The notes: generated by a model not told the origin, from the sequence alone. DNA of 32,128 bases from Desulfuromonadales bacterium (GCA_040882925.1 JBFLJZ010000350.1:1-32128); one strand, 5' to 3'. Counted from the first letter of the stretch, positions 8,420 to 29,936 are shown. Program-made: numbers and translations.

Positions 8420-8660
8420 AGTCTGCCTTTAAATTGCAGCCAAGATGATCCTCTGTTTTTGTCCGCCCGCATTTACTTAATAAATGAGCATATACAAGTT
8501 TTGCGGTTATGTCACAGGCAGTATAAAAAAGGTTATCAAATGAACTTATCGGCAAAAAATTCGCTGATGAAATGCTCGATTGGATCAGTTATTATCCCTT
8601 GAAAAATTTTTACGAACTTTAATTTGATTAATCGCATCAATAAAGGCCTGTATAAAGTCT

Positions 8661-9905
8661 ATGCCCCATAAAAATATCGAATTATGTCTTGCCTCCCCTG
8701 TTCTTTACCCAGCGCGTGGCGGTGCAGAAATCAGGTTCCTCAGGTACCTTCCAGGTCTCAATCAGCGGGGCATCAATGTGCGAATCTTCTCCGGGACGCC
8801 GAAAGCGAAAAAGATTACTGAACACGACAGGACGCAGGACTGGTACCGTATCCCTGCTGGCAGCCTCCTACCTGATATTTTCGAGTTGGATGTGCCAATT
8901 CACCGCGTCCGCCTGCCGGATCAGACTAGCTGGCGGCGCGTGGCCATCTTTAACCAAGCGCTACTTCGCCATTGCCTAAAGAGCGAGCGCAGGCCCGACA
9001 TCATTCAACTGATCGAACCGCTCTCACCACTTGCTGCGCCCTGGCTATGGCGACTGAAAAAACTCGATATCGTCAGGGCCTTTGCTTACACGCTTCCTTA
9101 TGAACTGCCGACCGGCGAAGTAAAAAGAGCCCTCCGTATAAGCGCATTGAAGATTCTCTACAGCCAGCTGGACCGTATGATCACCAGCAGTGTTGCCACC
9201 CGGGCTCATGCCTCAGGTCTTGGCCTCAGTCCCCGCACCGCAGTGATCCCGAATGGTGTCGATCTGCAACGATTTCAGCCGATTCCCGGAAGTGCTAAAA
9301 AAGCTCTACGTTCTACACTGGGTCTCGGCGAGATTGACCGGATGATGATAACCGTCGGATCGATTATTCCGCGTAAGGGAATCGACCTTTTGCTTGAGTC
9401 GTGGCAGACCCTGTCCAAACGTTTCCCGGATCTGCATTTTGTGCTGGTCGGCCCGAGGAATGACGAGAAGGATCCAAAACTGAGCCTTTTCAATAGAAAA
9501 CTAACAGAACTGGTCGATGCATCCGGGGCTGGCGACCGAGTGCATTTTACCGACCGCGTGCAGAATGTCGAAGCTTACCTGCAGGCCGCCGATCTGTTTG
9601 TTTTTGCCTCCGAGCGGGAAGGGATGGGGAATGTCGTCCTCGAAGCCATGGCTTCGGAATTACCCGTGGTCTTGACCCCATTTGTTGGCCTGCCACCGGA
9701 TTTCGGCGAACCTTCCGATCAATACCTTTTGTCCGACCGAAACACCACATCTATTGTTGAAAATGTTTCTGAACTTTTGCAGAATCATGGGCTTAGCCGC
9801 AAACTGGCAATAAGCGGGAGAAAATGGGTTGAGAATACAATGGATTTGGAACGTATCCTGGACCAGTATGCCGAACTTTATTATGCAATGTCAGGGCGTA
9901 AGTAA
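8661..9905 (+). CDS. Glycosyltransferase family 4 (GT-B, retaining)
   Basis: C-terminal GT1/GT4 signature FASEREGMGNVVLEAMASELPVVLTP, with GSIIPRKGIDLLLESW upstream. Length is 414 aa. Confidence 0.85.
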   Translation: MPHKNIELCLASPVLYPARGGAEIRFLRYLPGLNQRGINVRIFSGTPKAKKITEHDRTQDWYRIPAGSLLPDIFELDVPIHRVRLPDQTSWRRVAIFNQALLRHCLKSERRPDIIQLIEPLSPLAAPWLWRLKKLDIVRAFAYTLPYELPTGEVKRALRISALKILYSQLDRMITSSVATRAHASGLGLSPRTAVIPNGVDLQRFQPIPGSAKKALRSTLGLGEIDRMMITVGSIIPRKGIDLLLESWQTLSKRFPDLHFVLVGPRNDEKDPKLSLFNRKLTELVDASGAGDRVHFTDRVQNVEAYLQAADLFVFASEREGMGNVVLEAMASELPVVLTPFVGLPPDFGEPSDQYLLSDRNTTSIVENVSELLQNHGLSRKLAISGRKWVENTMDLERILDQYAELYYAMSGRK

Positions 9906-10131
9906 TGCCATTCTAATATCTTATTAAGCCTGCAAGGTTTATTCGAGTTATACTAATAATCTAATAATAAGAAGCTAAAAACACGGCTTCTTCAAGCTGT
10001 TGTTTGGAGCTCTTTACGTTATTATTACTCCAATCAGAAGAACATTAAATTATCTTGCTAAATCTATTCGCTGACATAAACCAGTCAGTAAAGACTCTCA
10101 ATTAAGAGTTGATCCTGAGAGATTTGATTAC

Positions 10132-10986
10132 ATGAGAATTTTGATTCTGGCTATCGGAAAATCTGGCACAACACCACTTTTATACAAGATTGGCGCTGCA
10201 AGGCCTGAACTACAAATTTTCTCAGGTGGGAGGCTGGAGCGTGTTGAGAAGATTCACGGAGATGCTGTCTTTAAATTCACGATGAGCGAAAATAAAGGGC
10301 GAAGCTTCAATGCTTTCATCGATCATCTGAGTCGAGTTGAATACGATCGCAAAATTTGGATCGCTCGCGACCCACGGGACAATGCAATCAGTCGCGTACT
10401 TTTCAGGTGGTACAGAGGCTCTAAAACAGACAAAACCCTTTACAGAGACATGATCAAGATGGTTGAGCAGAAAGAGCAAGATCCTAAATCAATTCCATTT
10501 TATGAACTGATGCGTTATAGGATCAGGAACCAAGAGCCACTTACAGTCGCTGAGGTCGTTGAAACAGAGCGTCGTTCTTTTGCACAAATGCATCGTTTCG
10601 TAGACAACCTAGGTGCTGACTGGTTTATATACAAGTATGAAGATTTTGTGGATAACAACTTTTCTGAATTAAACGATTGTTTAGGTTTTCAAGTTGAAAA
10701 CGACACGAATATTGACAAACACGCTATGAAAGTGGCCCGTAAAAAATCCACTGGGGATTGGCGTCACTGGTACACTGAGGAGGATGTAAAACTTTTCAGG
10801 CCGGTATACAAACCATACATGGACCTATTGGGCTATGATAGCAGTGATTGGGGACTTCATCCCGCTCAAGTTATTGAGCCGAAGTATGCCTCACTGTATT
10901 TAAAAAGCCTGCCAAGAATAAGGAGAGTTAATACCCTGAAAAAATTCAGAAAAAAAATGGCCCGCTTCTTTGTTGCAGACTCTTGA
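10132..10986 (+). CDS. Sulfotransferase family protein (PAPS-dependent)
   Basis: The N-terminal 5'-phosphosulfate-binding loop is ILAIGKSGTTPL, and the 3'-phosphate-binding motif is IARDPRDNAISRV. The gene and its flanks are markedly AT-rich by eye. Confidence 0.7.
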   Translation: MRILILAIGKSGTTPLLYKIGAARPELQIFSGGRLERVEKIHGDAVFKFTMSENKGRSFNAFIDHLSRVEYDRKIWIARDPRDNAISRVLFRWYRGSKTDKTLYRDMIKMVEQKEQDPKSIPFYELMRYRIRNQEPLTVAEVVETERRSFAQMHRFVDNLGADWFIYKYEDFVDNNFSELNDCLGFQVENDTNIDKHAMKVARKKSTGDWRHWYTEEDVKLFRPVYKPYMDLLGYDSSDWGLHPAQVIEPKYASLYLKSLPRIRRVNTLKKFRKKMARFFVADS

Positions 10987-11136
10987 TAATACTGAGAAGC
11001 ACTCAACATTAACAACTTTAATTTACTGAAAAACAAAGCAGTCGCTAGACCCGCTGAGCCTGCCTCTGCCATTTCTCATATAGAATTGTTCCGATGTTTA
11101 TCATGAAATACTTGTTATTTGCTTTATAAACCGTCC

Positions 11137-11844
11137 TCATTTGTATACTTTTGCATAAATATATTCCGCCAACTCCAGGTCCCACAGAGTGTCGATGCTG
11201 AGCATATGCCCTTCAATAACGAGAGCCCCGCAGCGCTCGCCTTTGATACTCTCCTGATAGAGCAAACAGCTGCGTCGGATCGCGTAGGCAACGCCATTGC
11301 GGTGGTAGACTGGAACCAACTGCTGACGGGCAATGATCTGCTTGCCGGCCGCGTCGTAATAATCGAGGCGGCCGTCCGTAACGATCAACTGTTTCAGCGG
11401 GTGCCCCTTGCTGTCAGTTTCCGACACGGTCCAGACTGCGTCCCAGTCCCCTTCAATGAGCATTTGTATGGTGTCCGAGACGTGCTCGGCAGTCCGCAAC
11501 GGCGAGGTCGGCTGCAGCATGACGACAATGTCATAGGTTGTCCCATCCAGTCGTTCCGTCTCGAGCAGGGCGTGGGTCAGGACCTGCAGATCCGAAATGC
11601 GATCTCCTGAGAGCTCTTCGGGACGGGTGAAGGGTGCGTCGAGGCCGGATTCCTGGGCGACCCTGGCGATGTCTTCCGAGTCAGTTGAAACAACCGCCCG
11701 ATCGATTTCTGGAATTTCCCGGACCAAGTGACCGACACGTGCAACCAGCGGTACCCCCAGGAACGGTTTGAGGTTCTTGTGCGGGATCCCCTTGCTGCCA
11801 CCCCGTGCCGGACAAACGACCAGGATACGTGCTCCTTGGATCAT
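11137..11844 (-). CDS. neuA: Acylneuraminate (nonulosonate) cytidylyltransferase, NeuA/CMP-NulO synthetase family
   Basis: The N-terminus ILVVCPARGGSKGIPHKNLKPFLGVPLVA is the CTP_transf_3 signature. Its start overlaps the upstream HAD gene stop (ATGA at 11841-11844). Confidence 0.85.
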   Translation of the reverse strand: MIQGARILVVCPARGGSKGIPHKNLKPFLGVPLVARVGHLVREIPEIDRAVVSTDSEDIARVAQESGLDAPFTRPEELSGDRISDLQVLTHALLETERLDGTTYDIVVMLQPTSPLRTAEHVSDTIQMLIEGDWDAVWTVSETDSKGHPLKQLIVTDGRLDYYDAAGKQIIARQQLVPVYHRNGVAYAIRRSCLLYQESIKGERCGALVIEGHMLSIDTLWDLELAEYIYAKVYK

Positions 11845-12515
11845 AACGGCTCTCCGGAAATTTTCGTTATCAATGCTGGCATTTCGCGCAGGTCTTCAAT
11901 AACCAGTGCTGCTTCGGTAATCGATGAGGCGGCCCGGTCTGCCAGCATGGCGACAAAATGGCAGCCGATTTGCTCGGCAGCGCGCTGGTCGTCAAGCTGG
12001 TCGCCAACATGAACGATTTCGCCAGGTTCGGCCCCGGTTGCCATGGCAATCGCCAAAAGATTGTCCGCTTTGGCGGCCTCCGCACCATAGGAGCCGTGGA
12101 AAATCTTTTCCCAGCGGCGCAGTGACAAAAGACGCTGTAATGGTTTGATCGGTGTCGCCGAATTGACGAACAAGCGTAGCCGCGTGTCGGCCAGGCGCAC
12201 CAGCATCTGCCCGGCACCGGGCATTTCCGGGCACCTGGAGATGGCAGCTTCACATCTCTCGGTATAGTTGTCTGCGAGTCGTTCCGCCCATTTTTCCAGG
12301 TCAGATCCGGGTGGTAGTAAATTCTGTTGTGTCAGGGCTTCTGCGATCCTTCTGGTTTTTTCATAACGATTGGCCGATGGCCAGCGTTCGAGGACATCAC
12401 CCGCGATCGCCCCGGAAGGGTCCCAGGACCGGGCAATCTCGAAAAAAGTTTCCCGCTTGATGGAATTGGAGTCGACCAGGGTTCCATCAAAATCGAAGAC
12501 GACGCATTTCACCAT
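11841..12515 (-). CDS. HAD-superfamily phosphatase (phosphoglycolate-phosphatase-like)
   Basis: HAD motif I is VVFDFDGTLVDS and motif IV is VHVGDQLDDQRAA. It sits between the NeuB-like and NeuA-like genes. Confidence 0.85.
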   Translation of the reverse strand: MVKCVVFDFDGTLVDSNSIKRETFFEIARSWDPSGAIAGDVLERWPSANRYEKTRRIAEALTQQNLLPPGSDLEKWAERLADNYTERCEAAISRCPEMPGAGQMLVRLADTRLRLFVNSATPIKPLQRLLSLRRWEKIFHGSYGAEAAKADNLLAIAMATGAEPGEIVHVGDQLDDQRAAEQIGCHFVAMLADRAASSITEAALVIEDLREMPALITKISGEPL

Positions 12516-12532
12516 TGTCTTAAGATGGTCGA

Positions 12533-14080
12533 TCAGGCTTCTTTGTTGCTGACCTTGTCTTTGAGCTGGAAACGTCCCCAGTGATCGACCACCGTCTTCC
12601 TTTCGGCACGCGACAGTTTGTTGATGCTTTTGTCTTCGTAGAAAGAGTCGTTGTCGTGATCACGGCTGGAGATTTCCTCGAAGATGACGCCGTTTTCGGT
12701 GCCGAACGAGTGCCAGACACCCGGCATAACAACCACGCTCTCGCCCGGGACCAGGGTTCGATGGTGTCCGTCCACGGTGCATTCCAGCTGCCCGTAAAGC
12801 ACCTGGAAAGTCTCCTCCTTCAGGGCGTGGTAGTGAGACGGGTGCTGCTGCCCTGGCAGCTGTACGACCAACTTCTTGCAGTAATCGCGGGTGACACATT
12901 CAATTAGGACGGCACCGGTTTCGCGGAACTTCGGGATGCCGTAGTGATGCGAGTATTCGACTTTGAACTCCGGACCGAGATGGATCCTCGCTTCGTTGAG
13001 CATCGCCTTGACCTCGTGGACGGCGTGCTTGATCACCAGTTCGTCCTCCGACCCCGGACGGTCGACCTTCTCTTCAAGGATCGGCTTGTTCGCAGCAACA
13101 TCGTTTTTGCTGACAATGCCCGGCTTGAAGCTGCCGCTATCCAGTTGCCCGTCGAGGTAGGGGATCGCGAAGTAGACTTGGTTACTTTCGATCACGGCAC
13201 CCTTGCGGATCCTGCGTTTTGCATAGACACCGCGCTTGAGCCCATCTATAGCGTTCTGTTCAGCCTCAGAGGCCGGCTGGCGTTCCCTTGGCCCACACAG
13301 GACCTGGGCTCTCAGTTTGGCCGAAATCCACTCGGCAATCTGCTCAGGTGTTGATGAATAGGCATTAAGCGGCGCGTCGTCCTTTGCAATGCCGACGTGG
13401 CGTTCGAAAAGTTCAGCACCCAGCGCGACAGCCAGTTGCACGGGTGTCATATCCGACGGCGACTCATGGGTGGACCAGCCGATGTGAATGCCGGGATAAC
13501 GACTGCGCAACAGACCAATCTGACGCATGTTCATGTTTGCATCGGGCGTCGGATAGATGGCTACACAGTGCATGATCGCGAAGCGAACACCCCGGTGTTC
13601 GAAGAAGCTGACCAGATTGTCGATGTCGCGAAGGCTCAAGCCGCCGGTTGAAAAAATCACCGGCTTGCCGGCGTCTGCGACTTTCTCGAGAAGCGGCCAG
13701 TCCCTGCCGGAGCAACTTGCCACCTTGATGACATCGAAACCCATCTGGCAAATAACGTCCACCGAGGCCTCGTCAAAGGGGGTGCACATGGTGACCAGCC
13801 CCTGCGAACCGACTTCGTCGAGCAGGACCTGGAAGTCGTCTCGGGACAGGCGCGTCGACAGAAAGCGCTGGACCTGTTTGTGGTCGCTGTTCTGCTGGTG
13901 GTCCCGGTGGATGAAAGTGTCGAGCTGCCGAAACTGGAATTTTAGCGCGGCGCGTGCGCCCTGTTCCTTGACGACTTTGGCGAAGGAGCGGACGATATTG
14001 AGACCGTGCTCGACGTCACCCTGGTGGTTGTTGGCCATATCCAGGACGAGAAGATCCTTGAAATCAAATTTACTTTTCAC
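12533..14080 (-). CDS. NeuB-family nonulosonate (sialic acid/Kdn-type) synthase with SAF domain, fused to a C-terminal cupin (D-lyxose/D-mannose isomerase-like) domain
   Basis: NeuB features are LDMANNHQGD, ALKFQF, IKVASCS, KPVIFSTGG, IMHCVAIYPTP and GWSTHE. The SAF-like segment is GVYAKRRIRKGAVIE. The C-terminal cupin motifs are GQQHPSHYHALKEETFQVLYG and PGESVVVMPGVWHSFGTEN. Confidence 0.8.
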   Translation of the reverse strand: MKSKFDFKDLLVLDMANNHQGDVEHGLNIVRSFAKVVKEQGARAALKFQFRQLDTFIHRDHQQNSDHKQVQRFLSTRLSRDDFQVLLDEVGSQGLVTMCTPFDEASVDVICQMGFDVIKVASCSGRDWPLLEKVADAGKPVIFSTGGLSLRDIDNLVSFFEHRGVRFAIMHCVAIYPTPDANMNMRQIGLLRSRYPGIHIGWSTHESPSDMTPVQLAVALGAELFERHVGIAKDDAPLNAYSSTPEQIAEWISAKLRAQVLCGPRERQPASEAEQNAIDGLKRGVYAKRRIRKGAVIESNQVYFAIPYLDGQLDSGSFKPGIVSKNDVAANKPILEEKVDRPGSEDELVIKHAVHEVKAMLNEARIHLGPEFKVEYSHHYGIPKFRETGAVLIECVTRDYCKKLVVQLPGQQHPSHYHALKEETFQVLYGQLECTVDGHHRTLVPGESVVVMPGVWHSFGTENGVIFEEISSRDHDNDSFYEDKSINKLSRAERKTVVDHWGRFQLKDKVSNKEA

Positions 14081-14092
14081 GTCATCCTCCGT

Positions 14093-15184
14093 TTAACGTG
14101 ACGAATCCAGCGTCAGGGCATTGAGTGAATACCCTTTGTTGTAGTCAATGAGAACCTTTTGCCCATGGCGGTTTGCCAGGTGTGCCGCGGCGACGACCAG
14201 CATGGTGTCGAGACCACATTCCAGGCCCAGAGGGCTCTCTTTTGCCCCACCCTCAAGGGCTGTTTGCAGGTGTTTGAGTTCGGCAATAAAATCGTCCGGT
14301 CGGGTCTTCTTGAAGACGACTTCCTCCTGCTGACCTTTGCCACTCTGCCAGACGAGACGATCTTCAGCGCCGATGGTGAGATCAATATAGCCGTCTTTAC
14401 CCTGGATGCGCCCCCATTTGCGGGCCGGCTTGGTGACCACATCCTGCACGACTCGACCAAACAGACCATTTTCTGTCTTCAGGTTCAACAGACACAGCTT
14501 GTCATAATCGACAGTTGCGGTCTTGATATATTCCAGACTGGCGGAAACTTCGGTGACGCGCCCGGTCTTCAGGCTGTGGGCCAGGTGCTGCCAAAGGTTG
14601 ATGGCGTGTGAATGTTCGCCGCTGGCGCCACCGCCTTTCTGCCAGAAGCCGAGATAGGTGTCCTGGGGACCGTCGAGCCAAGGGTGAGCGGTGAAAATGC
14701 CACCCCAATGTTCACGGAATTCGACATCGAGGGTTTCGGTGGGGCCGATCTGCGGAATCAGTTCAACCGCTTTCTCAGCAACCATGCTGACGACATGGTT
14801 GTAACCAACGAAAACCTGTACCCCGGTCTGATGCGCAAGCTTTAAGAGCTCATCCGCCCGTTCCAGTTCCGGGGTGCAGAGCGGTTTCTCAACCAGTACG
14901 GCCTGCGGTTTTTCGGCGATTGCCCGGATGGCAAGGTCCATGTGCGAGTCGGGTGGGGTACCGATGAAAATCAGGTCGAAGCCGTCGCGGGGAGCTTCTT
15001 CGTTGGTGCATAGCCGAATCGATTCATCCCATTGGCCGTAGCGTGCCGGGAATATCTCCTTTTTTGTCCGTTGCAGCGCAGCAGGATCCAGATCGCACAT
15101 GGTGACGTCCCAGCCCATGCGGCGTGAGGCGTGTGCCAGGTGGTTGCCGATTGATCCGGCCCCGAGAATCTTTACATTATACAT
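14093..15184 (-). CDS. Gfo/Idh/MocA-family NAD(P)-dependent oxidoreductase
   Basis: Rossmann N-terminus VKILGAGSIGNHLA, a conserved VLVEKPL motif, and VGYNH. Confidence 0.8.
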   Translation of the reverse strand: MYNVKILGAGSIGNHLAHASRRMGWDVTMCDLDPAALQRTKKEIFPARYGQWDESIRLCTNEEAPRDGFDLIFIGTPPDSHMDLAIRAIAEKPQAVLVEKPLCTPELERADELLKLAHQTGVQVFVGYNHVVSMVAEKAVELIPQIGPTETLDVEFREHWGGIFTAHPWLDGPQDTYLGFWQKGGGASGEHSHAINLWQHLAHSLKTGRVTEVSASLEYIKTATVDYDKLCLLNLKTENGLFGRVVQDVVTKPARKWGRIQGKDGYIDLTIGAEDRLVWQSGKGQQEEVVFKKTRPDDFIAELKHLQTALEGGAKESPLGLECGLDTMLVVAAAHLANRHGQKVLIDYNKGYSLNALTLDSSR

Positions 15185-15218
15185 TAACAGTCTCCGATAA
15201 GTTTTCGTTATTAATATA

Positions 15219-16592
15219 TTAATCTTTATTGAATATCCAGTACAAATGCTGCGAATGCTTTTTCACCTTCAGCCCGTCGAAGCGTCCCAGCAGTTGGCCG
15301 AACCGGTCGATGATCGCCGAGATTTCTTCCGCCGTGATCCCGGGGAAGCGGTGGTCGTGCAGGGCAATGTTGTTGCGATGTCCGGGACGACGCATGTTGA
15401 TGCGCTTTTCGATGGTGCGCTTCTGCGTTTTATACCAACCGCTGATTCGATCAGCAAGTGGCGGGGCGGAGGGGTGCTTGTCCCGGTAACCGCCTTCGTC
15501 CAGAACGTCGACGATTCGATCGGCGGCAAGACGTCCTTCAAGGGCGGCAATGTGCGGCTCCAGAGCCGCTTTCCGTACTGCATAGTCCAACGGCCCGATC
15601 CGGCCATCGACAATTTCCCGGACCGTTGACAGCAGTTCATCGACGGTGTAAACGCGCCGGCTGACATCGCGGGTAATGGGGAAATCGTATTCATCGACAG
15701 TGACCGGTTCAAAATTCACCCCTGCGGTGCCGAGGATCGCCGATTCCACCAGGGTGGTGCAGCCGTTGGCGACCACAACTTTGGCGGCCATCAGCCAGGG
15801 GTGGACATTCCCCTCGTTGGTCACCAGTAGATTGGGGTGAGCTTCGGCTATTTTCTTCCAGATTTCCTGACTTTCGGAAGGGTGGGGTCGAAGCACAATC
15901 GTGTAGTCAGCGAATGCATCGCAGAAGACCGGCAGCATTTTTTTGAAATGTTCGAAGATGGCGAGTTTATGGCGCCCCTTGCCGGCATCAAAAGGATCGA
16001 CTTTGCCTGTCTTCTCCGTTTCAGCAGCATTCTTGAGTTCACCGAGTTGTTCGTAATAGTGATTGACCTTGCTGAAGTTGGTGTTAATCAGGATGAAGTC
16101 GCCATACTGTTCGCGGATGACATTTGCTTGCGGACGATAGTAGTCGCGCAGCTCGGGCCGCAGGAGGTCGATCCTGGGGTTGCCGGTGACCCGGATCGGC
16201 GTATCGCCGTAGCCGCTGAAAGAGCGGAATGCCCGGGCATTGTCTTCACCCCAGGTGGTCAGGTAGGCAATGCGACGCATGGCCACGGCAGACAGACGCC
16301 AGCGATGGTAAATGGCGTCCGGTTCGCGTAGCAGGCCTTCTTCGTCCCAGGCCAGGATCTCATGGCCGGTCTGGTTGAGGAGCTTGAACATCCGGTCACT
16401 GCGGGTTTTCATGCTTTTTGCCATGTAGACCCCGCGGGGCACGGAGGCGGTTTTAAAGTGGATATATGCGCGCGAGCCGATCAGGACCGGGTAGCCACGC
16501 TCGGCCGCCACGGATGAAAGGAGGATTTTAGCGTCCATCTCGCGCACCTGGTTCTCGACCGGCATGATGATCGTAGAGGGGGATGCTGCCAT
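15219..16592 (-). CDS. Surface-carbohydrate biosynthesis protein; putative ulosonic-acid/sialyl-type transferase (GT-B-like with HP motif)
   Basis: 457 aa and soluble. It resembles the surface-carbohydrate biosynthesis family that accompanies NeuB/NeuA genes and contains LRPHPSE (an HP motif as in sialyl-, Kdo- and glycerophosphotransferases). The function is inferred from context only. Confidence 0.45.
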   Translation of the reverse strand: MAASPSTIIMPVENQVREMDAKILLSSVAAERGYPVLIGSRAYIHFKTASVPRGVYMAKSMKTRSDRMFKLLNQTGHEILAWDEEGLLREPDAIYHRWRLSAVAMRRIAYLTTWGEDNARAFRSFSGYGDTPIRVTGNPRIDLLRPELRDYYRPQANVIREQYGDFILINTNFSKVNHYYEQLGELKNAAETEKTGKVDPFDAGKGRHKLAIFEHFKKMLPVFCDAFADYTIVLRPHPSESQEIWKKIAEAHPNLLVTNEGNVHPWLMAAKVVVANGCTTLVESAILGTAGVNFEPVTVDEYDFPITRDVSRRVYTVDELLSTVREIVDGRIGPLDYAVRKAALEPHIAALEGRLAADRIVDVLDEGGYRDKHPSAPPLADRISGWYKTQKRTIEKRINMRRPGHRNNIALHDHRFPGITAEEISAIIDRFGQLLGRFDGLKVKKHSQHLYWIFNKD

Positions 16593-16616
16593 GAACGGAC
16601 TACTCCTGGGTCGCCA

Positions 16617-17792
16617 TCATTGCTTGATTTCGGCAAATGACTGCAGAAGATAATTGATCTGGTCGGATGTGTGAGCGGCACTGACGCTACACCGCAACAG
16701 GCTCATTCCGGCCGGCGCGGCAGGGGGGAAAACCAGATTGACATAGATCCCCTTGTCGAGCAGCGCGTTCCACGCGAGCAAGGTCATTTCCCTGGACGGC
16801 ATCCTGATGGCGACAACCGGGCTGAGATCGGGCCCGAGTTCGAAACCCAGGTCTTTGAGACCACCATAGAGCAGTGATGCGTTATTCCATAGCCTGGTGC
16901 GCAATTCGGGTTTTGCCTGTATGACCTGCAATGCCTGACGCACGGAAGCGGTCGTCGACGGGGATGGCGACGCCGTGAACACGTAGGAGCGACAGACGTA
17001 GCGCACCAGATCCAGTTCCGCGTGGTTGCTGACGCAATAGCCGCCGATCGAGCCGAGACTTTTGCTGAAAGTGCCGATGATGAAGTCGACGTCCTGCTCG
17101 ACGCCGACCGCCTCGGCCATGCCGCGTCCGGTGTCGCCCATCACGCCCATGGAGTGAGCTTCATCCACTAGCAGCCAGGCGCCGTATTTCCTTTTCAGGG
17201 CTGCGATCTCGGCCAGGGGAGCGCAATCACCAAGCATACTGTAAATGCCCTCGGCGATAATCAGGGTTTTCTCGGCCTTCGCGCCAAGCCGCTTGAGCTT
17301 CTTCTCGAGATCATCGACTGAGTTATGACGAAAACGGATCATCTCGGCACCGCTCATCTTGCAAGCGTCGTAAATGCTGGCGTGGGAGTCAGCGTCCAGA
17401 ACAATGACATCGCCGGGTCCGGCCAGGGTGGAAATCACGCCAAGGTTGGCAACGAATCCGGTCGAGAAGACGATGGCATCGCTGCAGTCGTAGAAACTGG
17501 CCAGGTCTCGTTCCAGGTCACGATGCCCGGCGAAGGTGCCATTGGCCATACGCGAGCCGGTTGTGCCTGTCCCGTCCTTCTCCAGGCTGGACCGGGCGGC
17601 CTGGATGCACTGCGGATCGAAGGTCAGGCCAAGGTAGTTGTTGGTCCCGGCCAGAAGCACGCGCTGCCCGTTGATTGACGCTTCGGTCGGGGAATAGATT
17701 TCATCGATGACGACGTTGAAAGGGTCGACTCCGTCCGGGAGCAGGGTTTTTCGTGTTTCTGCAATCGTGTTCAGTTTGTCAAGAAGTCCCAT
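16617..17792 (-). CDS. spt: PLP-dependent alpha-oxoamine synthase, serine palmitoyltransferase-like
   Basis: BioF/KBL/SPT family: GTNNYLGL, VDEAHSMG and the PLP-lysine motif GTFSKSLGSIGG. The start codon overlaps the ACP stop (TAATG at 17790-17794). Amino-acid substrate specificity cannot be read from the sequence. Confidence 0.75.
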   Translation of the reverse strand: MGLLDKLNTIAETRKTLLPDGVDPFNVVIDEIYSPTEASINGQRVLLAGTNNYLGLTFDPQCIQAARSSLEKDGTGTTGSRMANGTFAGHRDLERDLASFYDCSDAIVFSTGFVANLGVISTLAGPGDVIVLDADSHASIYDACKMSGAEMIRFRHNSVDDLEKKLKRLGAKAEKTLIIAEGIYSMLGDCAPLAEIAALKRKYGAWLLVDEAHSMGVMGDTGRGMAEAVGVEQDVDFIIGTFSKSLGSIGGYCVSNHAELDLVRYVCRSYVFTASPSPSTTASVRQALQVIQAKPELRTRLWNNASLLYGGLKDLGFELGPDLSPVVAIRMPSREMTLLAWNALLDKGIYVNLVFPPAAPAGMSLLRCSVSAAHTSDQINYLLQSFAEIKQ

Positions 17793-18073
17793 TAAGTCGT
17801 CTCGATAATCTCTTGGATTTTTAAAGTAAAGTCCTTGACTGTCCGTAATTCCGGGAGGCTGTTGAGCGGGTAGCTGATGTCAAAGGTGTCTTCAACGTCA
17901 TGCAGCATCTCCATGACTCTGAGCGAATCAAAGCCCAAATCGTTGACCAGTTCCGTCTCTTCGCTGATCGGTACCGGTCTTGGAGCGTATTCTTCAAGAA
18001 GCCTGATGACCTGTTTGTAGATCTCGCCGTATTGAGGGTTTGTCATGCCGGTCGAACTCCAATCTGTCAGCAT
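17792..18073 (-). CDS. Acyl carrier protein
   Basis: The phosphopantetheine attachment motif DLGFDSLRVMEM sits in a small acidic protein. A start at ATG 18046 (MTNPQYGEIY..., preceded by TGGAG) is at least as likely as 18073, which overlaps the upstream stop (ATGCTGA). Confidence 0.85.
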   Translation of the reverse strand: MLTDWSSTGMTNPQYGEIYKQVIRLLEEYAPRPVPISEETELVNDLGFDSLRVMEMLHDVEDTFDISYPLNSLPELRTVKDFTLKIQEIIETT

Positions 18074-18996
18074 CCTGACGGAAACAGGCGCTGCATTCCT
18101 TCACCGAACAGGATCCGGGGCTGCCAATCGGTTGCCTCGGTGATTGCGGTATTGTCACAGACCCAGTTCGGATGAAAAAGTTCTCTGACTTTGCCCGGTG
18201 TCAGCATCGGCCGGTAACCAATCAGGCGCGCCAGGCCTGTATTGGCGAGGGCGAACATGTGCAGCGGAGACCGAGGGATTACAAGACAGCGGGGTTTCCT
18301 GTTGTTCAGAAGGGTTGCAACCTTCACAATATCCGGCCAAGTATAGCCACCAGGGTGTCCGTCATGCAACTCAAAACAACGGTTTTTCGATGCTGGGGCC
18401 GATCTCAGCAGGCAACTGACCGCGGCAACCAGGTCGTCGACATGAATCAGTGAAAATCTGGCCTGCTTTGTTCCAATCTGCGGCACGATGCCACGCTTGA
18501 TCAGTTTCAACAGGGGTAGCATCTCGCGGTCTCCCGGTCCATAGACCGCCGGAGGACGCAGTATATCACAGGAGATCCCTATGTGGCAGTTCTCAAGGGT
18601 CTCTTCGCCTGACCTTTTGCTTGATGCATAGGCAGAGAGGGCCGGTTCGCGTGCGGCCAGGGAAGACATCAACAAAAATCGCGGGATATTCTCTGCCACA
18701 GCGGCCTTGAGCAGGTGGGTCACACCAGCCGCATTGGATGCCTCGAACTGCTGCGGCGACGCGCCGCGCACCGCCCCGGCGCAATGGACCACCGCATCAG
18801 CCCCGGCTACCAGTCCGCGCAGGCTATCGATATCATCGATGTCGCCGGGGTGCCATTGAACTGAATCCGTCGAGCCGGGAGAAGGCGTTTTCGCGGGGCG
18901 GTAGAGGGCCTTGACCAGGAAACCTTCTGCAACCAGATGCCTGAGCAGAACGGTGCCGATAAAGCCCGTTGCTCCTGTTACTGCTATTGTGAGCAC
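18067..18996 (-). CDS. NAD(P)-dependent epimerase/dehydratase-family SDR; candidate 3-keto(sphingoid/ceramide) reductase (CerR-like)
   Basis: The Rossmann motif is IAVTGATGFIGTVL and the catalytic YxxxK is YASSK. It is positioned between the FAAL and ACP/SPT genes, as in the Caulobacter crescentus sphingolipid cluster. Confidence 0.6.
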   Translation of the reverse strand: MLTIAVTGATGFIGTVLLRHLVAEGFLVKALYRPAKTPSPGSTDSVQWHPGDIDDIDSLRGLVAGADAVVHCAGAVRGASPQQFEASNAAGVTHLLKAAVAENIPRFLLMSSLAAREPALSAYASSKRSGEETLENCHIGISCDILRPPAVYGPGDREMLPLLKLIKRGIVPQIGTKQARFSLIHVDDLVAAVSCLLRSAPASKNRCFELHDGHPGGYTWPDIVKVATLLNNRKPRCLVIPRSPLHMFALANTGLARLIGYRPMLTPGKVRELFHPNWVCDNTAITEATDWQPRILFGEGMQRLFPSGC

Positions 18997-19032
18997 AGTC
19001 GAGATCGTTCTTTGGAAAATTTCAAGCTTTAT

Positions 19033-20853
19033 TTAGCGGGCACTGCCTGCAAAGCGTAAATCAGAGACGTCGTCACTCCCGGAATGGAGTTCTTGCGCTG
19101 CATCAAGCTGCAGAAGACTTTGCTCTGATTGGCGCTTCAGGTAATCACGGCGCGTGCCGGCACGGGACAACTTGCCAGAGGATGTGCGCGGAAGAGTGTG
19201 TGCGGAGACAAGCTCGATGGTGCAGTCGATACCAAGTTGTTGTTTTACAACCGACGCGATACGGTCAGCGAATTCACGCCTTTTGCTCTTGTCCGTTTCT
19301 CGGTATTGGACGACCATGACCGCGGTTTCAGTGCCGTCATCTGCAGGAACGGAGATCGCCGAGGCATCACCGGGCCTGACCTCCGGTTGTTGCTCGGCAA
19401 AAAACTCGAGGTCCTGTGGCCAGATGTTTCGGCCGTTGATAATGATCATGTCTTTTGCTCGACCGGTGATCACCAGGGAACCGTCAACCAGGTAACCGAT
19501 GTCCCCTGTATTCAGCCAACCATCGCTGGAAAGGACTTCTGCTGTGGCTGCAGGATCGCCAAGGTAGCCGGTCATGACACTAGGCCCACGTACGTGAATT
19601 GTCCCGCACTGCCTGTCTGGCAGAACTTTTTCGGACTCGTTCTTGATCTGAATTTCATGACCGGGCAGCGGCGGGCCGCAGTTGACCAGTTTTTTTGTGC
19701 GGAGGCCGGTTCTCGACGCAGGGTTGACCGGGAGTGCAAGTTGATGTTCCGAAAGCTGCTCGGCAGCGACCTCATCGATGACAAGCCCCTGGTCTGAGCG
19801 GGCAAAGCTCACGGCAAGCGCGCATTCAGCCATCCCGTAACTGGCGACAAAACTTTTACCGTCGAAACCAAATGGAGCCATTTTTTCCGCGAAGGCCTCC
19901 AGAACATCGGCCCGGATCGTTTCGGCGCCAACACCGGCAATCCGCCAGGCCCCAAGATCGTAAACGGTCTGATCGTCTTGACGCAGCCGACGTGTGCACA
20001 ATTCGTAACCAAAAGGTGGCGCGAAGGAAATTGTCCCACGGTTGCAGCTCATCAAGCCCAGCCACAATCGCGGCCGCATGGCGAAGTCGCGGGTCGTGAG
20101 AAAATCGACGGAAAGTTGTGAAGCCATTGGTGCCAGGACAAAGCCGATCAGTCCCATGTCATGGTAATATGGTAGCCAGGACATGCACCGGTCGCCATTG
20201 CGTACCTTCAGGCCGTCTTTAATGATGCCGGAAAGATTTTGCATGACGGCAGCCTCACTGACCATGACCCCGCGCGGGAAGCGAGTACTGCCCGACGTGT
20301 ATTGCAGATAGGCAGTTTCTGTGGATTGCAGTGGCAACAGTTCAACGTCTTGTTCCGGGAGTTGATCAAAAGTCTCTGGTTTGCCGACGAGGGCCAATCC
20401 CAGTCCCTGGGCTGCCTCACTGAGAAAGGGCATGAAATCACAAGGGGCTACCGCGACGGCTGACTGGCTCTTCTCGAGCAGACCACGTAATTGTTCAACG
20501 TAGGCCCTGTGCCCATCCAGATGAATCGAAGCTGGCAATGGCACAGGAACGTACCCGGCATATTGGCATGCAAAAAAGAAGCGTGGGAAGTCAGGATCGG
20601 TTTCTGCGATGATGGCGACCCGCGAGCCCCTGTCCAGTTGTAGGCCGCACAGGCGTTTTGCCAGTATTCGTGCTTCTCTTTGTAATTCTGCGTAGGTGAG
20701 AACGGTGCGTAGTTCGCCGCGACCGCTGTAGAAATTGAATCCGCTCTGCCCTGTGGCAGCGTAATCCAACGCGTCTGAAAGGTTGGAAAAGTCGGCTGTT
20801 CGTAGTGGGATCCTGCTCTCAGTTGGCGTTGGATGAATAGATTTCATTATCAC
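19033..20853 (-). CDS. Fatty acyl-AMP ligase / acyl-ACP synthetase (adenylate-forming enzyme)
   Basis: AMP-binding motifs are LQYTSGSTRFPRGV, GYGMAE-like YGMAECA, GWLNTGDIGY and SSGKLSR. The N-terminus resembles FAAL enzymes. The ORF-track start is GTG at 20853, and the ATG two codons downstream (20847, MKSIHPT...) is equally plausible. Confidence 0.85.
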   Translation of the reverse strand: MIMKSIHPTPTESRIPLRTADFSNLSDALDYAATGQSGFNFYSGRGELRTVLTYAELQREARILAKRLCGLQLDRGSRVAIIAETDPDFPRFFFACQYAGYVPVPLPASIHLDGHRAYVEQLRGLLEKSQSAVAVAPCDFMPFLSEAAQGLGLALVGKPETFDQLPEQDVELLPLQSTETAYLQYTSGSTRFPRGVMVSEAAVMQNLSGIIKDGLKVRNGDRCMSWLPYYHDMGLIGFVLAPMASQLSVDFLTTRDFAMRPRLWLGLMSCNRGTISFAPPFGYELCTRRLRQDDQTVYDLGAWRIAGVGAETIRADVLEAFAEKMAPFGFDGKSFVASYGMAECALAVSFARSDQGLVIDEVAAEQLSEHQLALPVNPASRTGLRTKKLVNCGPPLPGHEIQIKNESEKVLPDRQCGTIHVRGPSVMTGYLGDPAATAEVLSSDGWLNTGDIGYLVDGSLVITGRAKDMIIINGRNIWPQDLEFFAEQQPEVRPGDASAISVPADDGTETAVMVVQYRETDKSKRREFADRIASVVKQQLGIDCTIELVSAHTLPRTSSGKLSRAGTRRDYLKRQSEQSLLQLDAAQELHSGSDDVSDLRFAGSAR

Positions 20854-20888
20854 TCTAGTATTTATCAGTATTTAGTCAGAAGAATTAA

Positions 20889-20904
20889 CGCAATATCAAT
20901 GCCA
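20889..20904 (-). promoter_or_regulatory. Sigma-54 (RpoN) -24/-12 promoter for the FAAL-to-neuA operon
   Basis: Read on the minus strand, this is TGGCAT-TGATA-TTGCG, against the consensus TGGCAC-N5-TTGCW with exact GG-N10-GC spacing. It lies about 36-42 nt upstream of the FAAL start codon, inside an AT-rich intergenic region. Confidence 0.55.
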
Positions 20905-21112
20905 ACCCGGGAAACATCGCGTATTCTATATAACTAGTGATTTGTTTGTCAATCCACATATGCATAATGATGTGTTTTTAATATCAAAATTGTGGTTATT
21001 TTGCAACAATAAGGACGCTTGCAGTGTTAGACATAGGCGCCGATTGGGGATTAAAACTCATTGATTAGGTTGTGACTTCTTTGAATTTTGTCCTCGGGCT
21101 GACTTAATCTTC

Positions 21113-21562
21113 TCAACTTGCCTCAGTGGAAATACAGCACAATGCATCTTTTAAGGTTTTTTTTATCTGTTGTTTCAGATGATCACCGACATTGTTGTCT
21201 TGACCCAGATCAGGTGGGCCGGGCCAACCTGGGTCAGCAAACTCTGTTTCGCCAAACAATCGTACAGCGGAATACCTCGGCAGGATATGGAAGTGCACGT
21301 CAGGGTCAACCATCATCAGCATCAGGTAATTAATCTTGTCATAGGTGAAACAACTTTTGAGACCGGACTCTAATGCAGTGGTTATCTCTTTTAACTCGGC
21401 AAACGCCTCGACGCTAACAGCCGACAGCGCATCGGCGTCTTCCTTGCAAATCAGCACGAGAGCACCAAGAGTGACCTGTTGCGGACGCAATAATACGACC
21501 CAATAATCATATTCCCTGACCAGGGATTCCGGGTAACCGAATTTTGCCATGGTTGCATTCAT
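21113..21562 (-). CDS. HIT-superfamily nucleotide hydrolase/transferase-like protein
   Basis: The histidine-triad region is MVDPDVHFHILPRY. The ATG at 21562 is preceded by AAGGAGGG at good spacing. The longer ORF-track version (to 21898) adds 112 low-complexity residues overlapping the divergent gene and is rejected. Confidence 0.65.
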   Translation of the reverse strand: MNATMAKFGYPESLVREYDYWVVLLRPQQVTLGALVLICKEDADALSAVSVEAFAELKEITTALESGLKSCFTYDKINYLMLMMVDPDVHFHILPRYSAVRLFGETEFADPGWPGPPDLGQDNNVGDHLKQQIKKTLKDALCCISTEAS

Positions 21563-21797
21563 TGATACAGCCCTCCTTTGTCTGTTCCCCGTTTCAATCG
21601 AACGAGGGGTTGGCTGGTGGAGCCTTTTTTGTCTACCCCCCTTACATGCTAGCGGACTATCGAGTATTATCAATTCGCAGAGACCGCAAAATAACCGAAA
21701 TCGGGCAAACCGTTTGAACCATTCAGTACATTTACAGAAAGAAAAAGAAAGGCAGTGCATCGAACCGCTAAAAATTGTCCCGGTTGCAGGCCGCCGC

Positions 21798-22895
21798 ATG
21801 ACCGCTCGATTCATTGAGATACCATGGTCCCTGTATGCCGCCGATCCCTGCTGGGTGCCGCCTTTGCTCGTAGAGAGGAAATGGCATCTTTCCGCCAAAA
21901 ATCCTTACTTCGAACATGCTGAATTCCAGGCATGGATCGCCTGGCGCGGTAACCGGATGGTCGGGCGCATCAGTGCACAGGTCGACCAGTTGCACTTGCA
22001 GCAACACAACGATGCAACTGGTTTTTTCGGTTTCCTGGAAGCAGAAGACAGTGCGGAGACTTTCCATGCCCTGTTTGTTGCTGCTGAAGAGTGGCTGCGG
22101 CAAAAAGGCATGCGGCAGGCTCGCGGCCCGTTCAGCCTGTCAATCAACGATGAATGCGGATTGCTGGTCGATGGTTTTGATAGTCCGCCACCGATCATGC
22201 TGGGCCATGCCCTGCCGTATTACGGCAAGCGCGTTGAAGAGCAGGGTTATGTCAAGGAGCAGGACCTGCTTGCGTACCGGGTGGATTCGAACCTTGCTCA
22301 CCAGCCGCATCTGGAACTCCTAAGCAAGAGGTACTCGCAGCGCATCAAGGTCCGCAAGATGAGAAAGGGTTGTTTCGCAGTGGAACTGGAAATTATCCGC
22401 GACCTTTTCACCGATGCCTGGTCAGAAAACTGGGGCTTTATTCCTTTTACCCAGGCCGAATTTGCCGAACTGGGTAAAAATCTCAAATTTCTCGTAGATT
22501 CCGAGTGGATCAGGATCGCCGAAGTTGACGGCGAGCCGGTGGCGATGATGGTCATGTTTCCCAATATCAACGAGATGATCAAAGATTTAAATGGCCGTCT
22601 GCTGCCGTTCGGCTGGTTGAAGCTGCTCTGGCGGCTGAAAGTCTCCGGCGCCAGGTCATCGAGAGTCCCCTTGATGGGAGTCAGGCGCCAACACCAGGGG
22701 ACAATGATGGGGGCAGCTTTGGCCCTGATGACGATCGACCCGATTCATCAGCATGCCCGCAAGAAAGGGGTCACTGAAGTGGATATGTCGTGGATTCTCG
22801 AGCAGAACAAGGGCATGCGAAAAATTATCGAACTACTGGGCGGCAATGTTTACAAACGGTACCGGATCTATGAGAAAGATTTGGCGGCAGGATGA
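21798..22895 (+). CDS. Large (about 365 aa) GNAT-type N-acyltransferase; candidate bacterial ceramide synthase
   Basis: The conserved N-terminus is FIEIPWSLYAADPCWVPPLL and the C-terminal GNAT core is GVRRQHQGTMMGAALAL...ILEQNKGMRKIIELLGG. Start is taken at the first plausible ATG (21798). The true start may lie a few codons upstream at a non-ATG codon. The stop overlaps the next gene start (ATGA at 22892-22895). Confidence 0.55.
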   Translation: MTARFIEIPWSLYAADPCWVPPLLVERKWHLSAKNPYFEHAEFQAWIAWRGNRMVGRISAQVDQLHLQQHNDATGFFGFLEAEDSAETFHALFVAAEEWLRQKGMRQARGPFSLSINDECGLLVDGFDSPPPIMLGHALPYYGKRVEEQGYVKEQDLLAYRVDSNLAHQPHLELLSKRYSQRIKVRKMRKGCFAVELEIIRDLFTDAWSENWGFIPFTQAEFAELGKNLKFLVDSEWIRIAEVDGEPVAMMVMFPNINEMIKDLNGRLLPFGWLKLLWRLKVSGARSSRVPLMGVRRQHQGTMMGAALALMTIDPIHQHARKKGVTEVDMSWILEQNKGMRKIIELLGGNVYKRYRIYEKDLAAG

Positions 22896-23704: not shown

Positions 23705-23877
23705 ATAGCTTTTGGCGAAGCGAAAGTAAAGGTTGTCATTCGCGCTTATTGTTTTAAGTAACGTGTCACGGGTGATGCGCAAAGCACTTTTTTATATTCT
23801 CCTGTTGTGATAAAAGTTCGCAGACTCAGGTTGGTCGTAAAAAAGCTCTTAAGAAAGGTTTTAAAGGCAAGGATTCG

Positions 23878-24321: not shown

Positions 24322-24388
24322 TATATCAGGCACACAACAATTCCGGAGATAACTCTGCGAAGCTGTCTCAGCAAGTTAGGGAATTGAT

Positions 24389-25459: not shown

Positions 25460-25494
25460 GCAAGGTCTAAGCAACGAGGACTTTTCCTGCATCG

Positions 25495-29917: not shown

Positions 29918-29936
29918 AGCTTTATGCTAAAAACCT

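Follow-up and report, generated by a model that had tools for sequence, protein, structure and literature searches.

A predicted operon joins ceramide-type lipid genes to nonulosonic acid genes in a Desulfuromonadales genome

Why should genes for a ceramide-type lipid and genes for a CMP-activated ulosonic acid lie together in one operon? The question is raised by a 32,128-nucleotide (nt) stretch of DNA from a Desulfuromonadales bacterium (GCA_040882925.1 JBFLJZ010000350.1:1-32128), hereafter the window. Nine of its genes combine serine palmitoyltransferase (Spt) and its partners with a NeuB/NeuA-type sugar pathway, and a protein of family TIGR04396 is encoded between the two. A sequence-only reading of the window had proposed that the product is a ceramide decorated with a nonulosonic acid. 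Our analysis suggests that the operon would make a ceramide-type lipid, a CMP-ulosonic acid and the enzyme joining them. We lean towards the view that the sugar ends up on the sphingolipid. Known bacterial sphingolipid headgroups are few: hexoses, hexuronic acids, phosphoglycerate, phosphoinositol and phosphoethanolamine. The operon thus predicts a new class of strongly anionic, ganglioside-like outer-membrane lipid, in organisms that dominate anoxic sediments and are uncultured.

Operon layout and gene assignments

The genes and signals concerned are these (aa, amino acids).

20923-20952, minus strand: sigma-70-like promoter, TTGACA-N18-TAGAAT, 11/12 positions
20889-20904, minus strand: sigma-54-type -24/-12 element, sole match in the window, position conserved in relatives
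19033-20853, minus strand: FAAL or acyl-acyl carrier protein (ACP) synthetase, AasR-like, 606 aa; NF006624, PF00501, TSGSTRFPRGV
18067-18996, minus strand: extended short-chain dehydrogenase/reductase (SDR) in the CerR position, 309 aa; PF01370, 7.7e-28
17792-18073, minus strand: dedicated ACP, AcpR-like, 93 aa; PF00550, DSL at residue 49
16617-17792, minus strand: serine palmitoyltransferase, 391 aa; NF047599, pyridoxal phosphate-lysine motif SKS at residue 243
15219-16592, minus strand: TIGR04396 protein of GT-B type, candidate CMP-ulosonic acid:lipid transferase, 457 aa; TIGR04396, 334 bits
14093-15184, minus strand: Gfo/Idh/MocA oxidoreductase, 363 aa; PF01408
12533-14080, minus strand: NeuB fused to a cupin, 515 aa; PF03102 (1e-41), PF07883, PF07385
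11841-12515, minus strand: HAD-IA hydrolase, sugar-phosphate phosphatase or mutase, 224 aa; PF00702, PF13419
11137-11844, minus strand: NeuA-like CMP-ulosonic acid synthetase, 235 aa; PF02348, 1.4e-22
11028-11070, minus strand: hairpin and U-tract, possible terminator
21798-22895, plus strand: GNAT-type N-acyltransferase, candidate bacterial ceramide synthase; identified from homologues, fold matches and conserved position

The nine open reading frames (ORFs) occupy 11137-20853. Junctions are either gaps of at most 36 nt (36, 24, 34, 12 and 17 nt) or overlaps. Behind FAAL comes SDR, which overlaps ACP by 7 nt (ATGCTGA, 18067-18073); ACP overlaps spt by 1 nt (TAATG, 17790-17794) and HAD overlaps NeuA by 4 nt (ATGA, 11841-11844). 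A terminator scan of the minus strand found no site within any intergenic gap of the operon. The only minus-strand site (13658-13673) falls within the NeuB-cupin coding sequence, and terminator-like sites overall were rarer than in shuffles by this simple scan. A hairpin followed by a U-tract (UUUGUUUUU) lies at 11028-11070, 67-109 nt past the last stop codon. It was unflagged by the simple scan, with a whole-region z-score of -1.45, and is a possible terminator. Given the short gaps and overlaps, the terminator-free junctions and the hairpin after the ninth gene, the natural reading is a single transcription unit. All coordinates, gaps, overlaps and junction strings agreed with the sequence-only reading. 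Each protein motif that it quoted was found (TSGSTRFPRGV, GATGFIG, YASSK, DSL, SKS and HP), and all nine of its family assignments stand in Pfam and NCBIfam.

GC content is even over both modules (0.54-0.58) and falls to 0.41-0.50 at about 7-11 kb, just past the 3' end of the operon. A recent insertion of the NeuB module was considered and rejected; the operon is uniform in GC and the true low-GC insert is the 7-11 kb cassette. An Rfam scan of the window returned no RNA family, and thus no known riboswitch or leader.

The sequence upstream of FAAL, TGGCAT-TGATA-TTGCG (TGGCATTGATATTGCG, 20889-20904, minus strand), has the exact GG-N10-GC spacing of a sigma-54 element. It is the sole TGGCAY-N5-TTGC match in the window. 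The match alone is not significant, since 0.28 are expected and 25/100 shuffles contain at least one. Related loci, numbered L003 to L072 and described below, were compared. An exact element precedes FAAL in seven of nine Desulfuromonadales-type loci with the upstream region present (L003, L005, L007, L011, L013, L014 and L015), 25-52 nt before the start codon. The spacers differ (TAATA, CAACC, TAACC, TAATC). Single-base variants occur in L004 (AGGCAC-N5-TTGC) and L055 (TGGCGC-N5-TTGC), and the distant L065 and L066 have GG-N10-GC variants (AGGCAT and GGGCAC, each N5-TTGC). Because the position is conserved while the spacer varies, we rejected a chance match; the pattern argues for a functional promoter. 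Domain scans turned up no AAA+ enhancer-binding protein domain among the window ORFs scanned.

About 20 nt further upstream is the sigma-70-like element. Its TTGACA and a downstream A+T-rich hexamer are matched in six relatives (L014, L005, L015, L003, L007 and L004). Hence, to call the operon sigma-54-preceded is correct but incomplete. There may be tandem promoters, or the TTGACA element may be a regulator site for an activator or IHF.

The lipid module follows a known order. In Caulobacter, aasR-cerR-acpR-spt corresponds to CC_1165 to CC_1162 (PMC11324152), and FAAL-SDR-ACP-Spt is the same arrangement, which upholds the earlier comparison with the Caulobacter gene set. FAAL scores 791.6 bits against NF006624 (cut-off 600), with TSGSTRFPRGV at residue 186. 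The SDR has GATGFIG at residue 8 and YASSK at residue 123; its assignment as CerR is by family and by its position between FAAL and ACP, that of cerR (CC_1164) in Caulobacter. The ACP scores under housekeeping AcpP cut-offs, and its gene overlaps the spt start, with FAAL two genes upstream. By profile score, the 391-aa alpha-oxoamine synthase is Spt and not BioF or KBL, as the sequence-only reading had supposed. It exceeds the NF047599 equivalog cut-off (631 bits versus 500) and lies under those for bioF (348 versus 426), KBL (316 versus 460), ALAS and CqsA. Against solved structures, it scores 448 bits with Sphingomonas paucimobilis SPT (2JG2) and 223 bits with the best KBL.

A divergent gene is a candidate for the missing fifth ceramide gene, the bacterial ceramide synthase (bCerS). 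The mechanical plus-strand ORF, 21549-22895 (448 aa), is too long and overlaps the start of a divergent HIT gene. Homologues are mostly 365-389 aa, and several sources call them GNAT or N-acetyltransferase. Hence, the true start is probably near 21798 (M84) or slightly upstream, leaving a divergent promoter region of about 235 nt. The protein has no Pfam match at E up to 5. Its model, of low confidence (pLDDT 61), matches tandem-GNAT folds, and the gene is kept beside the cluster in relatives.

What sugar would the second module make? The operon holds a synthase of the type that condenses phosphoenolpyruvate (PEP) and a CTP_transf_3 cytidylyltransferase, as NeuB/NeuA-type pathways do. Equivalog-level assignment to the N-acetylneuraminic (Neu5Ac), pseudaminic or legionaminic acid pathways fails. 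NeuB scores 138 bits for NeuB_NnaB (cut-off 399.65) and 122 for PseI (cut-off 340.25), and the NeuA-like protein scores 127 for PseF (cut-off 205.7). No aminotransferase, dehydratase or N-acetyltransferase gene was found in the operon by Pfam or NCBIfam. We infer a non-aminated 3-deoxy-2-ulosonic acid. With these sub-threshold scores and no amino-sugar genes, a sugar like the C9 acid Kdn is most likely; of the 'sialic/Kdn-like' label given earlier, the NeuB and NeuA families hold and 'sialic' becomes the less likely half. HAD, NeuB and NeuA are consistent with the Kdn-type gene content of synthase, phosphatase and cytidylyltransferase, as are NeuB and a NeuA::HAD fusion in L055, though the HAD protein of the window is of type IA. 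It has a DFDGT (DxDxT) nucleophile motif and weak similarity to beta-phosphoglucomutase.

The cupin adds a further possibility. Its metal-binding motifs are recognisable by eye and its nearest families are D-lyxose/D-mannose isomerases; if it is a D-lyxose isomerase, the product could be a C8 isomer of Kdo. The Kdo pathway itself was judged unlikely. The synthase is of the NeuB family, not KdsA, and the NeuA-like protein is nearer to CMP-Neu5Ac synthetase (88.6 bits) than to KdsB (32.5 bits). The Gfo/Idh/MocA gene is directly upstream of NeuB-cupin in every cassette inspected; its product may epimerise or tailor the sugar. Triple HAD-NeuB-cupin fusions of 678-746 aa occur in metagenomes (P0156, P0176 and P0178). 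Hence, the three activities probably act together. The Gfo-NeuB-cupin-NeuA cassette is widespread, occurring in Myxococcota, Nitrospirae and a cyanobacterial metagenome-assembled genome (MAG). We know of no biochemical characterisation of it.

Linkage of the two modules in other genomes

Is the junction of the two modules an accident of one contig? A genome scan with the TIGR04396 alignment gave 63 loci, all from MAGs. Those at 77-85% identity belong to Desulfuromonadales, Desulfuromusa and Geobacteraceae. At about 55% are Desulfobacterales, Syntrophales, Syntrophobacterales and Thermodesulfobacteriota, at about 50% Chromatiales, Ectothiorhodospiraceae and Sedimenticolaceae, and at about 48% Rhodospirillales and Myxococcota. 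Gene content was counted in the 26 loci of at least 12 kb. Spt-core genes are present in 17, ulosonic-acid genes in 24 and both in 15; a phospholipase D (PLD)-like gene is present in 23.

The nine-gene order of the window recurs at about 80% identity in L003, L004, L005, L007, L013, L014 and L015. Relatives of about 55% identity have the order FAAL-SDR-ACP-Spt-(ABC)-(CDP-OH/DAGK/Tam41)-PLD-TIGR04396-Gfo-NeuB-cupin-HAD-NeuA (L025, L060 and L063); L061 has this order without a detectable PLD gene. A second, independent anchor, NeuB-cupin homologues at 61-62% identity, identified a third lineage. It comprises three long contigs from one sample (ERZ25072999), two of them labelled circular (L065, L066 and L069). 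Here, HIT-FAAL-SDR-ACP-Spt is followed by an Elm1-like glycosyltransferase, a TIGR04396-like protein (33-34% identity) and Gfo-NeuB-cupin(-HAD)-NeuA. The Elm1-like gene (PF06258) lies between spt and the TIGR04396-like gene (L065, 4954-7419; L066, 4952-7417; L069, 5010-7364) and is also found in L068 (1-1348). It hints at an extra sugar between ceramide and acid sugar.

One Desulfuromonadales MAG has exchanged its sugar genes. In L055, where Spt is 82% identical, a different minimal module directly follows spt (7822-11401). This consists of a stand-alone NeuB (312 aa), a NeuA::HAD fusion (406 aa) and a TIGR04396 protein 43% identical to that of the window. Hence, the sugar pathway appears to be swappable while the link to Spt and the TIGR04396 protein are kept. 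Since both modules recur together in relatives, from two independent anchors, their linkage is not an accident of the contig. The earlier claim that the lipid and sugar modules belong together is upheld by a gene order conserved across several orders and phyla.

Linked lipid and sugar genes were thus seen in Desulfuromonadales, other Desulfobacterota/Thermodesulfobacteriota, Ectothiorhodospiraceae and the L065/L066/L069 lineage. MAGs of Chromatiales, Sedimenticolaceae and Nitrospirae have related TIGR04396 and sugar-cassette loci as well. A broader proposal is that a ceramide with an ulosonic acid cap, built on the logic of Kdo2-lipid A and possibly sulfated, methylated or glycosylated, serves as an outer-membrane lipid in many uncultured anaerobes and sulfur bacteria. 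We hold this tentatively, at slightly less than an even chance.

The candidate joining enzyme

Which protein would place the sugar on the lipid? The TIGR04396 gene begins 24 nt past spt, within the operon. Its product belongs to the family by full model length and score (334 bits versus cut-off 125). It also matches the BFO_1060 glycosyltransferase domain (E = 1.3e-18), at 67 bits versus a cut-off of 200, which indicates homology and not membership. Among 19 aligned homologues, the most distant of them 53% identical, W82, D83-E84-E85, R235, H237 and P238 do not vary; 16 of the 19 also have G86, and RxHP spans 235-238. D/E-D/E-G and HP motifs are familiar from bacterial sialyltransferases and have been noted in Tannerella forsythia pseudaminic and legionaminic acid (Pse/Leg) transferases, deletion of which strips the terminal Pse or Leg from the O-glycan (PMC5420450). 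The window protein has both motifs and a GT-B fold in an AlphaFold2 model (pLDDT 89). No transmembrane segment was predicted in it.

A neighbour-joining tree placed the protein in a clade whose genes, in all cases where both neighbours could be named, have Spt or PLD on the upstream side and Gfo on the downstream side. A gammaproteobacterial and Myxococcota subgroup instead has the gene next to NeuA or PLD. From this gene context, we infer that the putative transferase would move a CMP-activated ulosonic acid onto a sphingolipid. A second paralogous clade, 37-43% identical, follows NeuA in many loci. Such a paralogue lies beside NeuA or the first copy in L019, L024, L028, L030, L031, L036, L040, L046, L047, L053 and L060; the window has a single copy. 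It may attach a further ulosonic acid, much as lipid A has two Kdo residues and KpsS is paired with KpsC.

The route that we propose would start with FAAL loading a fatty acid onto the dedicated ACP, by homology with Caulobacter. Spt would condense acyl-ACP with serine to 3-ketosphinganine, the divergent GNAT acyltransferase would N-acylate this, and the SDR would reduce the 3-keto group. In parallel, HAD, the cupin ketol-isomerase and Gfo/Idh/MocA would supply or tailor an aldose, the NeuB domain would condense it with PEP and the NeuA-like enzyme would yield the CMP-sugar. At the cytoplasmic face, the TIGR04396 protein would then use the CMP-sugar to add the acid to the lipid. This could happen at the C1 hydroxyl of ceramide, or on a headgroup from the PLD-like, ceramide-kinase-like, Tam41-like and CDP-alcohol-transferase genes described below. 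Put more widely, candidate acceptors are ceramide, a phospho-headgroup, glycosylceramide, or even lipid A or another glycan. An MsbA-like ABC protein would flip the lipid and an LptF/LptG pair would feed it to the outer membrane, paralleling the WaaA, MsbA and Lpt route of Kdo2-lipid A. Expression would be from the conserved sigma-54 promoter, with the sigma-70-like element just upstream. Hence, of the ulosonic acid-decorated ceramide proposed from the sequence alone, the pairing of modules is supported by synteny, while acceptor, sugar identity and product stay predictions.

Several observations weigh against a sphingolipid-directed transferase. The evidence is all genomic and every locus comes from an uncultured MAG. 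The TIGR04396 protein is under the cut-off of the BFO_1060 family. Foldseek against the PDB gave 232 matches at E of 0.001 or less, and the best 50 of these 232 are nearly all GT-B enzymes; among the matches listed, UDP-GlcNAc 2-epimerases (including NeuC) and TagF, not sialyltransferases, are on top, with TM-scores of about 0.5. Gfo-NeuB-cupin-(HAD)-NeuA occurs without Spt within 10 kb in L067 (Myxococcota), L070, L071 and L072, and in L068 the cassette is cut by the contig end. Window-clade TIGR04396 proteins occur without Spt in the flanks of L021, L024, L049 and L050. In L016 the TIGR04396 protein (59% identical) adjoins a lipid A-type acyltransferase gene. Finally, Caulobacter CerR is reported to be periplasmic (PMC11087976), which by analogy complicates a wholly cytoplasmic assembly order.

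Loci without Spt would be expected of a two-product envelope supercluster. Here, one product would be a Caulobacter-like ceramide or phosphosphingolipid and the other a CMP-ulosonic acid, whose sugar TIGR04396 would attach to a glycoprotein, a capsule or lipid A-core. A shared destination, the outer membrane, would then be the sole reason for the genes being placed and regulated together. Polysaccharide-type loci with the cassette fit this: L070 has a weak Capsule_synth (KpsS/C-type) match, L072 has GT4 and PMT_2, and L067 has a weak match to a Kdo/WaaP kinase family. The L016 neighbour, the generic naming of TIGR04396 as a surface carbohydrate biosynthesis protein, and the GT4 and sulfotransferase-like genes of the window also fit. 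We consider this explanation unlikely, though it deserves to be taken seriously. The transferase gene is directly behind spt and keeps its place between lipid gene and sugar genes across otherwise rearranged lineages. The linkage is recovered from the NeuB-cupin anchor and survives the module swap in L055, and domain scans of the window found no lipid A, core or Wzx/Wzy-type genes. Since the cassette is found in loci without Spt, we regard it as a module that moves between loci, and transferases of this family may act on different lipids. L016 may show the family at work on lipid A: in this complete genome (CP113000.1, Thermodesulfobacteriota ORM2a), the TIGR04396 gene is divergent from Lip_A_acyltrans (LpxL-like; 8566-11398), with no Spt within 10 kb.

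The Foldseek result is generic for GT-B, with epimerases and TagF on top, so structure is compatible with a transferase and an epimerase alike. Hence, TIGR04396 might be a NeuC-/PseG-like hydrolysing epimerase that feeds NeuB, or a TagF-like phosphotransferase, the joining enzyme being elsewhere, if there is one. The minimal module of L055 (NeuB, NeuA::HAD and TIGR04396) would then resemble a NeuB/NeuA/NeuC set, and the Caulobacter cluster has a TagF-family gene, CC_1167. A Pfam search at E up to 5 matched the protein weakly to DUF354 alone, with no Epimerase_2 or Glyphos_transf, and a PDB profile search with the alignment gave no match. The protein is significantly homologous to the BFO_1060 ulosonic-acid transferase domain, and it shares its invariant D-E-E and HP motifs with CMP-sugar transferases. 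Many loci hold two paralogues, adjacent to each other or on either side of NeuA, as is natural for transferases and odd for a precursor enzyme, and the cassette already has putative precursor enzymes (HAD, cupin and Gfo). On balance, an enzyme other than a transferase is improbable. The lipid module might instead make another acyl-amino compound from a different amino acid or acyl partner, not a sphingoid base. Assigning alpha-oxoamine synthases from sequence is difficult, and FAAL-ACP-alpha-oxoamine synthase trios occur in natural-product pathways. This we think very improbable. Spt is the only such model whose curated equivalog cut-off is exceeded, among solved structures bacterial SPTs score best, about 225 bits ahead, and the window has the complete gene order and accessory set of the Caulobacter kind.

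If the sphingolipid-directed transferase is real, this TIGR04396 clade would be the first nonulosonic acid transferase directed at a lipid, and would do for sphingolipids what WaaA and KpsS do for their own lipids. The ulosonic acid made by the Gfo-NeuB-cupin-HAD-NeuA cassette would be one not characterised before, and these genes might also account for the 'aminoglycosphingolipid' of Chlorobium. If the lipid replaces or complements lipopolysaccharide (LPS), it bears on outer membranes built without or beside Kdo-lipid A. The operon offers clonable candidates for the transferase, the Gfo/NeuB-cupin/HAD pathway and a sphingolipid export route parallel to LPS, and it defines a target mass class for environmental lipidomics. 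The prediction is widely distributed and well supported, still genomic only, and cheap to check by heterologous expression.

Neighbouring genes and comparison with known systems

The remaining features of the window are as follows.

5309-7060, minus strand: MsbA/HepA-like ABC exporter, candidate flippase; HepA_fam 306 and MsbA 263 bits, both under cut-offs
7325-8419, plus strand: PLD-superfamily protein; PF13091 in two stretches, two HKD-like motifs
8661-10986, plus strand: low-GC variable cassette of GT4 and sulfotransferase-like protein; domain matches
21113-21562, minus strand: HIT-family protein, like CC_1157; PF01230, 1.4e-4
22892-23704, plus strand: NTP_transf_3 nucleotidyltransferase, like CC_1152/CC_1153; domain match
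24389-26562, plus strand: LptF and LptG permeases; PF03739, 1.3e-64 and 8e-63
26582-27610, minus strand: metallophosphoesterase, like CC_1158; domain match
27687-30905, plus strand: CDP-alcohol phosphatidyltransferase, DAGK_cat kinase and Tam41-like cytidylyltransferase, like CC_1159, CC_1160 and CC_1161

Domain for domain, the rest of the window corresponds to the greater part of the phosphosphingolipid (CPG/CPG2) and Lpt2 genes of Caulobacter. In Caulobacter, LptF2/LptG2 adjoin the sphingolipid cluster and CC_1160 is a proven ceramide kinase (PMC11324152); the window LptF/LptG correspond by domain to CC_1156/CC_1155. The Tam41-like match is weak (21.6 bits, under the Pfam cut-off of 24). Neither LptC2 nor a CC_1166-type flippase was found in the window. 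The MAG that holds this set belongs to Desulfuromonadales, whereas PMC11324152 discusses alpha-, beta- and gammaproteobacteria. In many relatives, too, a HIT gene precedes FAAL on the same strand. The MsbA-like ABC gene lies between Spt and PLD in many relatives, and the PLD gene is directly upstream of the transferase gene in those of about 55% identity. The PLD-like motifs are HEKLYYFS...GTFN and HNKFMLFE...GSMN. An MsbA-like exporter and LptF/LptG in the neighbourhood are consistent with the suggestion of a Kdo-lipid A mimic in the sequence-only reading.

The PLD-like, GT4 and sulfotransferase-like genes make up a low-GC region (7325-10986; 0.41-0.50). The slot between NeuA and PLD varies among close relatives: L013 has GT4 there, L014 has no detectable insert, and in L003, L004, L007 and L015 the slot spans 2.7-4.4 kb that gave no matches. 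The sugar cassette repeatedly has sulfotransferase or methyltransferase genes at its side (L014, L065, L067, L068, L069 and L072), which suggests strain-variable sulfation or methylation of the product. Relatives keep a 195-aa ORF (23746-24333, minus strand) between the NTP-transferase and LptF genes, at 42-60% identity. It matches no family significantly (chance-level NLE, E = 0.043), gives no LptC match and has no predicted transmembrane segment. Just past the sphingolipid cluster, at 31240-32022, a response-regulator receiver is fused to a PilZ domain.

How does the operon compare with systems already described? Caulobacter CC_1152-CC_1168 has the same core order, FAAL/AasR-SDR/CerR-ACP-Spt. 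It shares with the window the HIT, metallophosphoesterase, CDP-alcohol transferase, DAGK kinase, weak Tam41, nucleotidyltransferase(s), GNAT and LptF/LptG neighbours. The Caulobacter region also includes cerS, genes for ceramide phosphoglycerate and LptC2/F2/G2. Its known headgroups are phosphoglycerate and, under phosphate limitation, hexose/hexuronic acid. The window adds an MsbA-like ABC and a PLD-like protein, the flippase candidate being unlike the CC_1166 type. The Caulobacter region as described is without NeuB, NeuA or TIGR04396 genes, and no role is assigned to its TagF-family gene CC_1167 (PMC11324152).

In the literature searched, we found no combination of sphingolipid and nonulosonic acid genes (nonulosonic/Kdn/Kdo sphingolipids, TIGR04396). 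The main text of a survey of Black Sea sphingolipids mentions no sialic or nonulosonic acid; this survey of anoxic water implicates Desulfobacterota as producers (PMC11334938). An aminoglycosphingolipid of Chlorobium limicola (Jensen, Knudsen & Olson 1991, Arch Microbiol 156:248) is cited in PMC11762602. The literature searched assigns no genes to it. This lipid reportedly bears neuraminic acid, although the literature searched did not confirm it, and it is to our knowledge the only precedent for a nonulosonic-acid bacterial sphingolipid. Hence, the statement that no bacterial sphingolipid with such a headgroup is described overlooks the Chlorobium lipid, and it holds for genes in the literature searched. 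The Chlorobium lipid is an amino sugar lipid, whereas the operon lacks aminotransferase and N-acetyltransferase genes.

In Sphingomonadaceae, glucuronosyl- or galacturonosyl-ceramide replaces LPS. These bacteria use UDP-hexuronic acids and ordinary glycosyltransferases; here, a CMP-3-deoxy-ulosonic acid donor and a sialyltransferase-like enzyme are predicted. An acidic sugar on ceramide in the outer leaflet can be a functional stand-in for LPS (PMC11087976). The Tannerella forsythia family of Tanf_01245, TFUB4_00887 and BFO_1060 is remotely homologous to the TIGR04396 protein, with the same motifs, a predicted GT-B/TagB-like fold and no transmembrane segment, but its acceptor is a protein-bound O-glycan. 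WaaA and the beta-Kdo transferases KpsS/KpsC add Kdo from CMP-Kdo to a membrane lipid at the cytoplasmic face, after which ABC export follows. Acting on lipid IVA and on lyso-phosphatidylglycerol capsule anchors, respectively, they have the logic proposed here. They differ in family (GT30; GT99/GT107 Capsule_synth), in making Kdo via KdsA/KdsB and in the lipid. Animal gangliosides are an analogy only; they too carry a nonulosonic acid on ceramide, but by unrelated Golgi GT29 enzymes, and with the sialic acid on a lactosyl core. By family and gene order, the sugar half of the operon is of the NeuB/NeuA kind but none of the characterised pathways, and the lipid half is a Caulobacter-type system.

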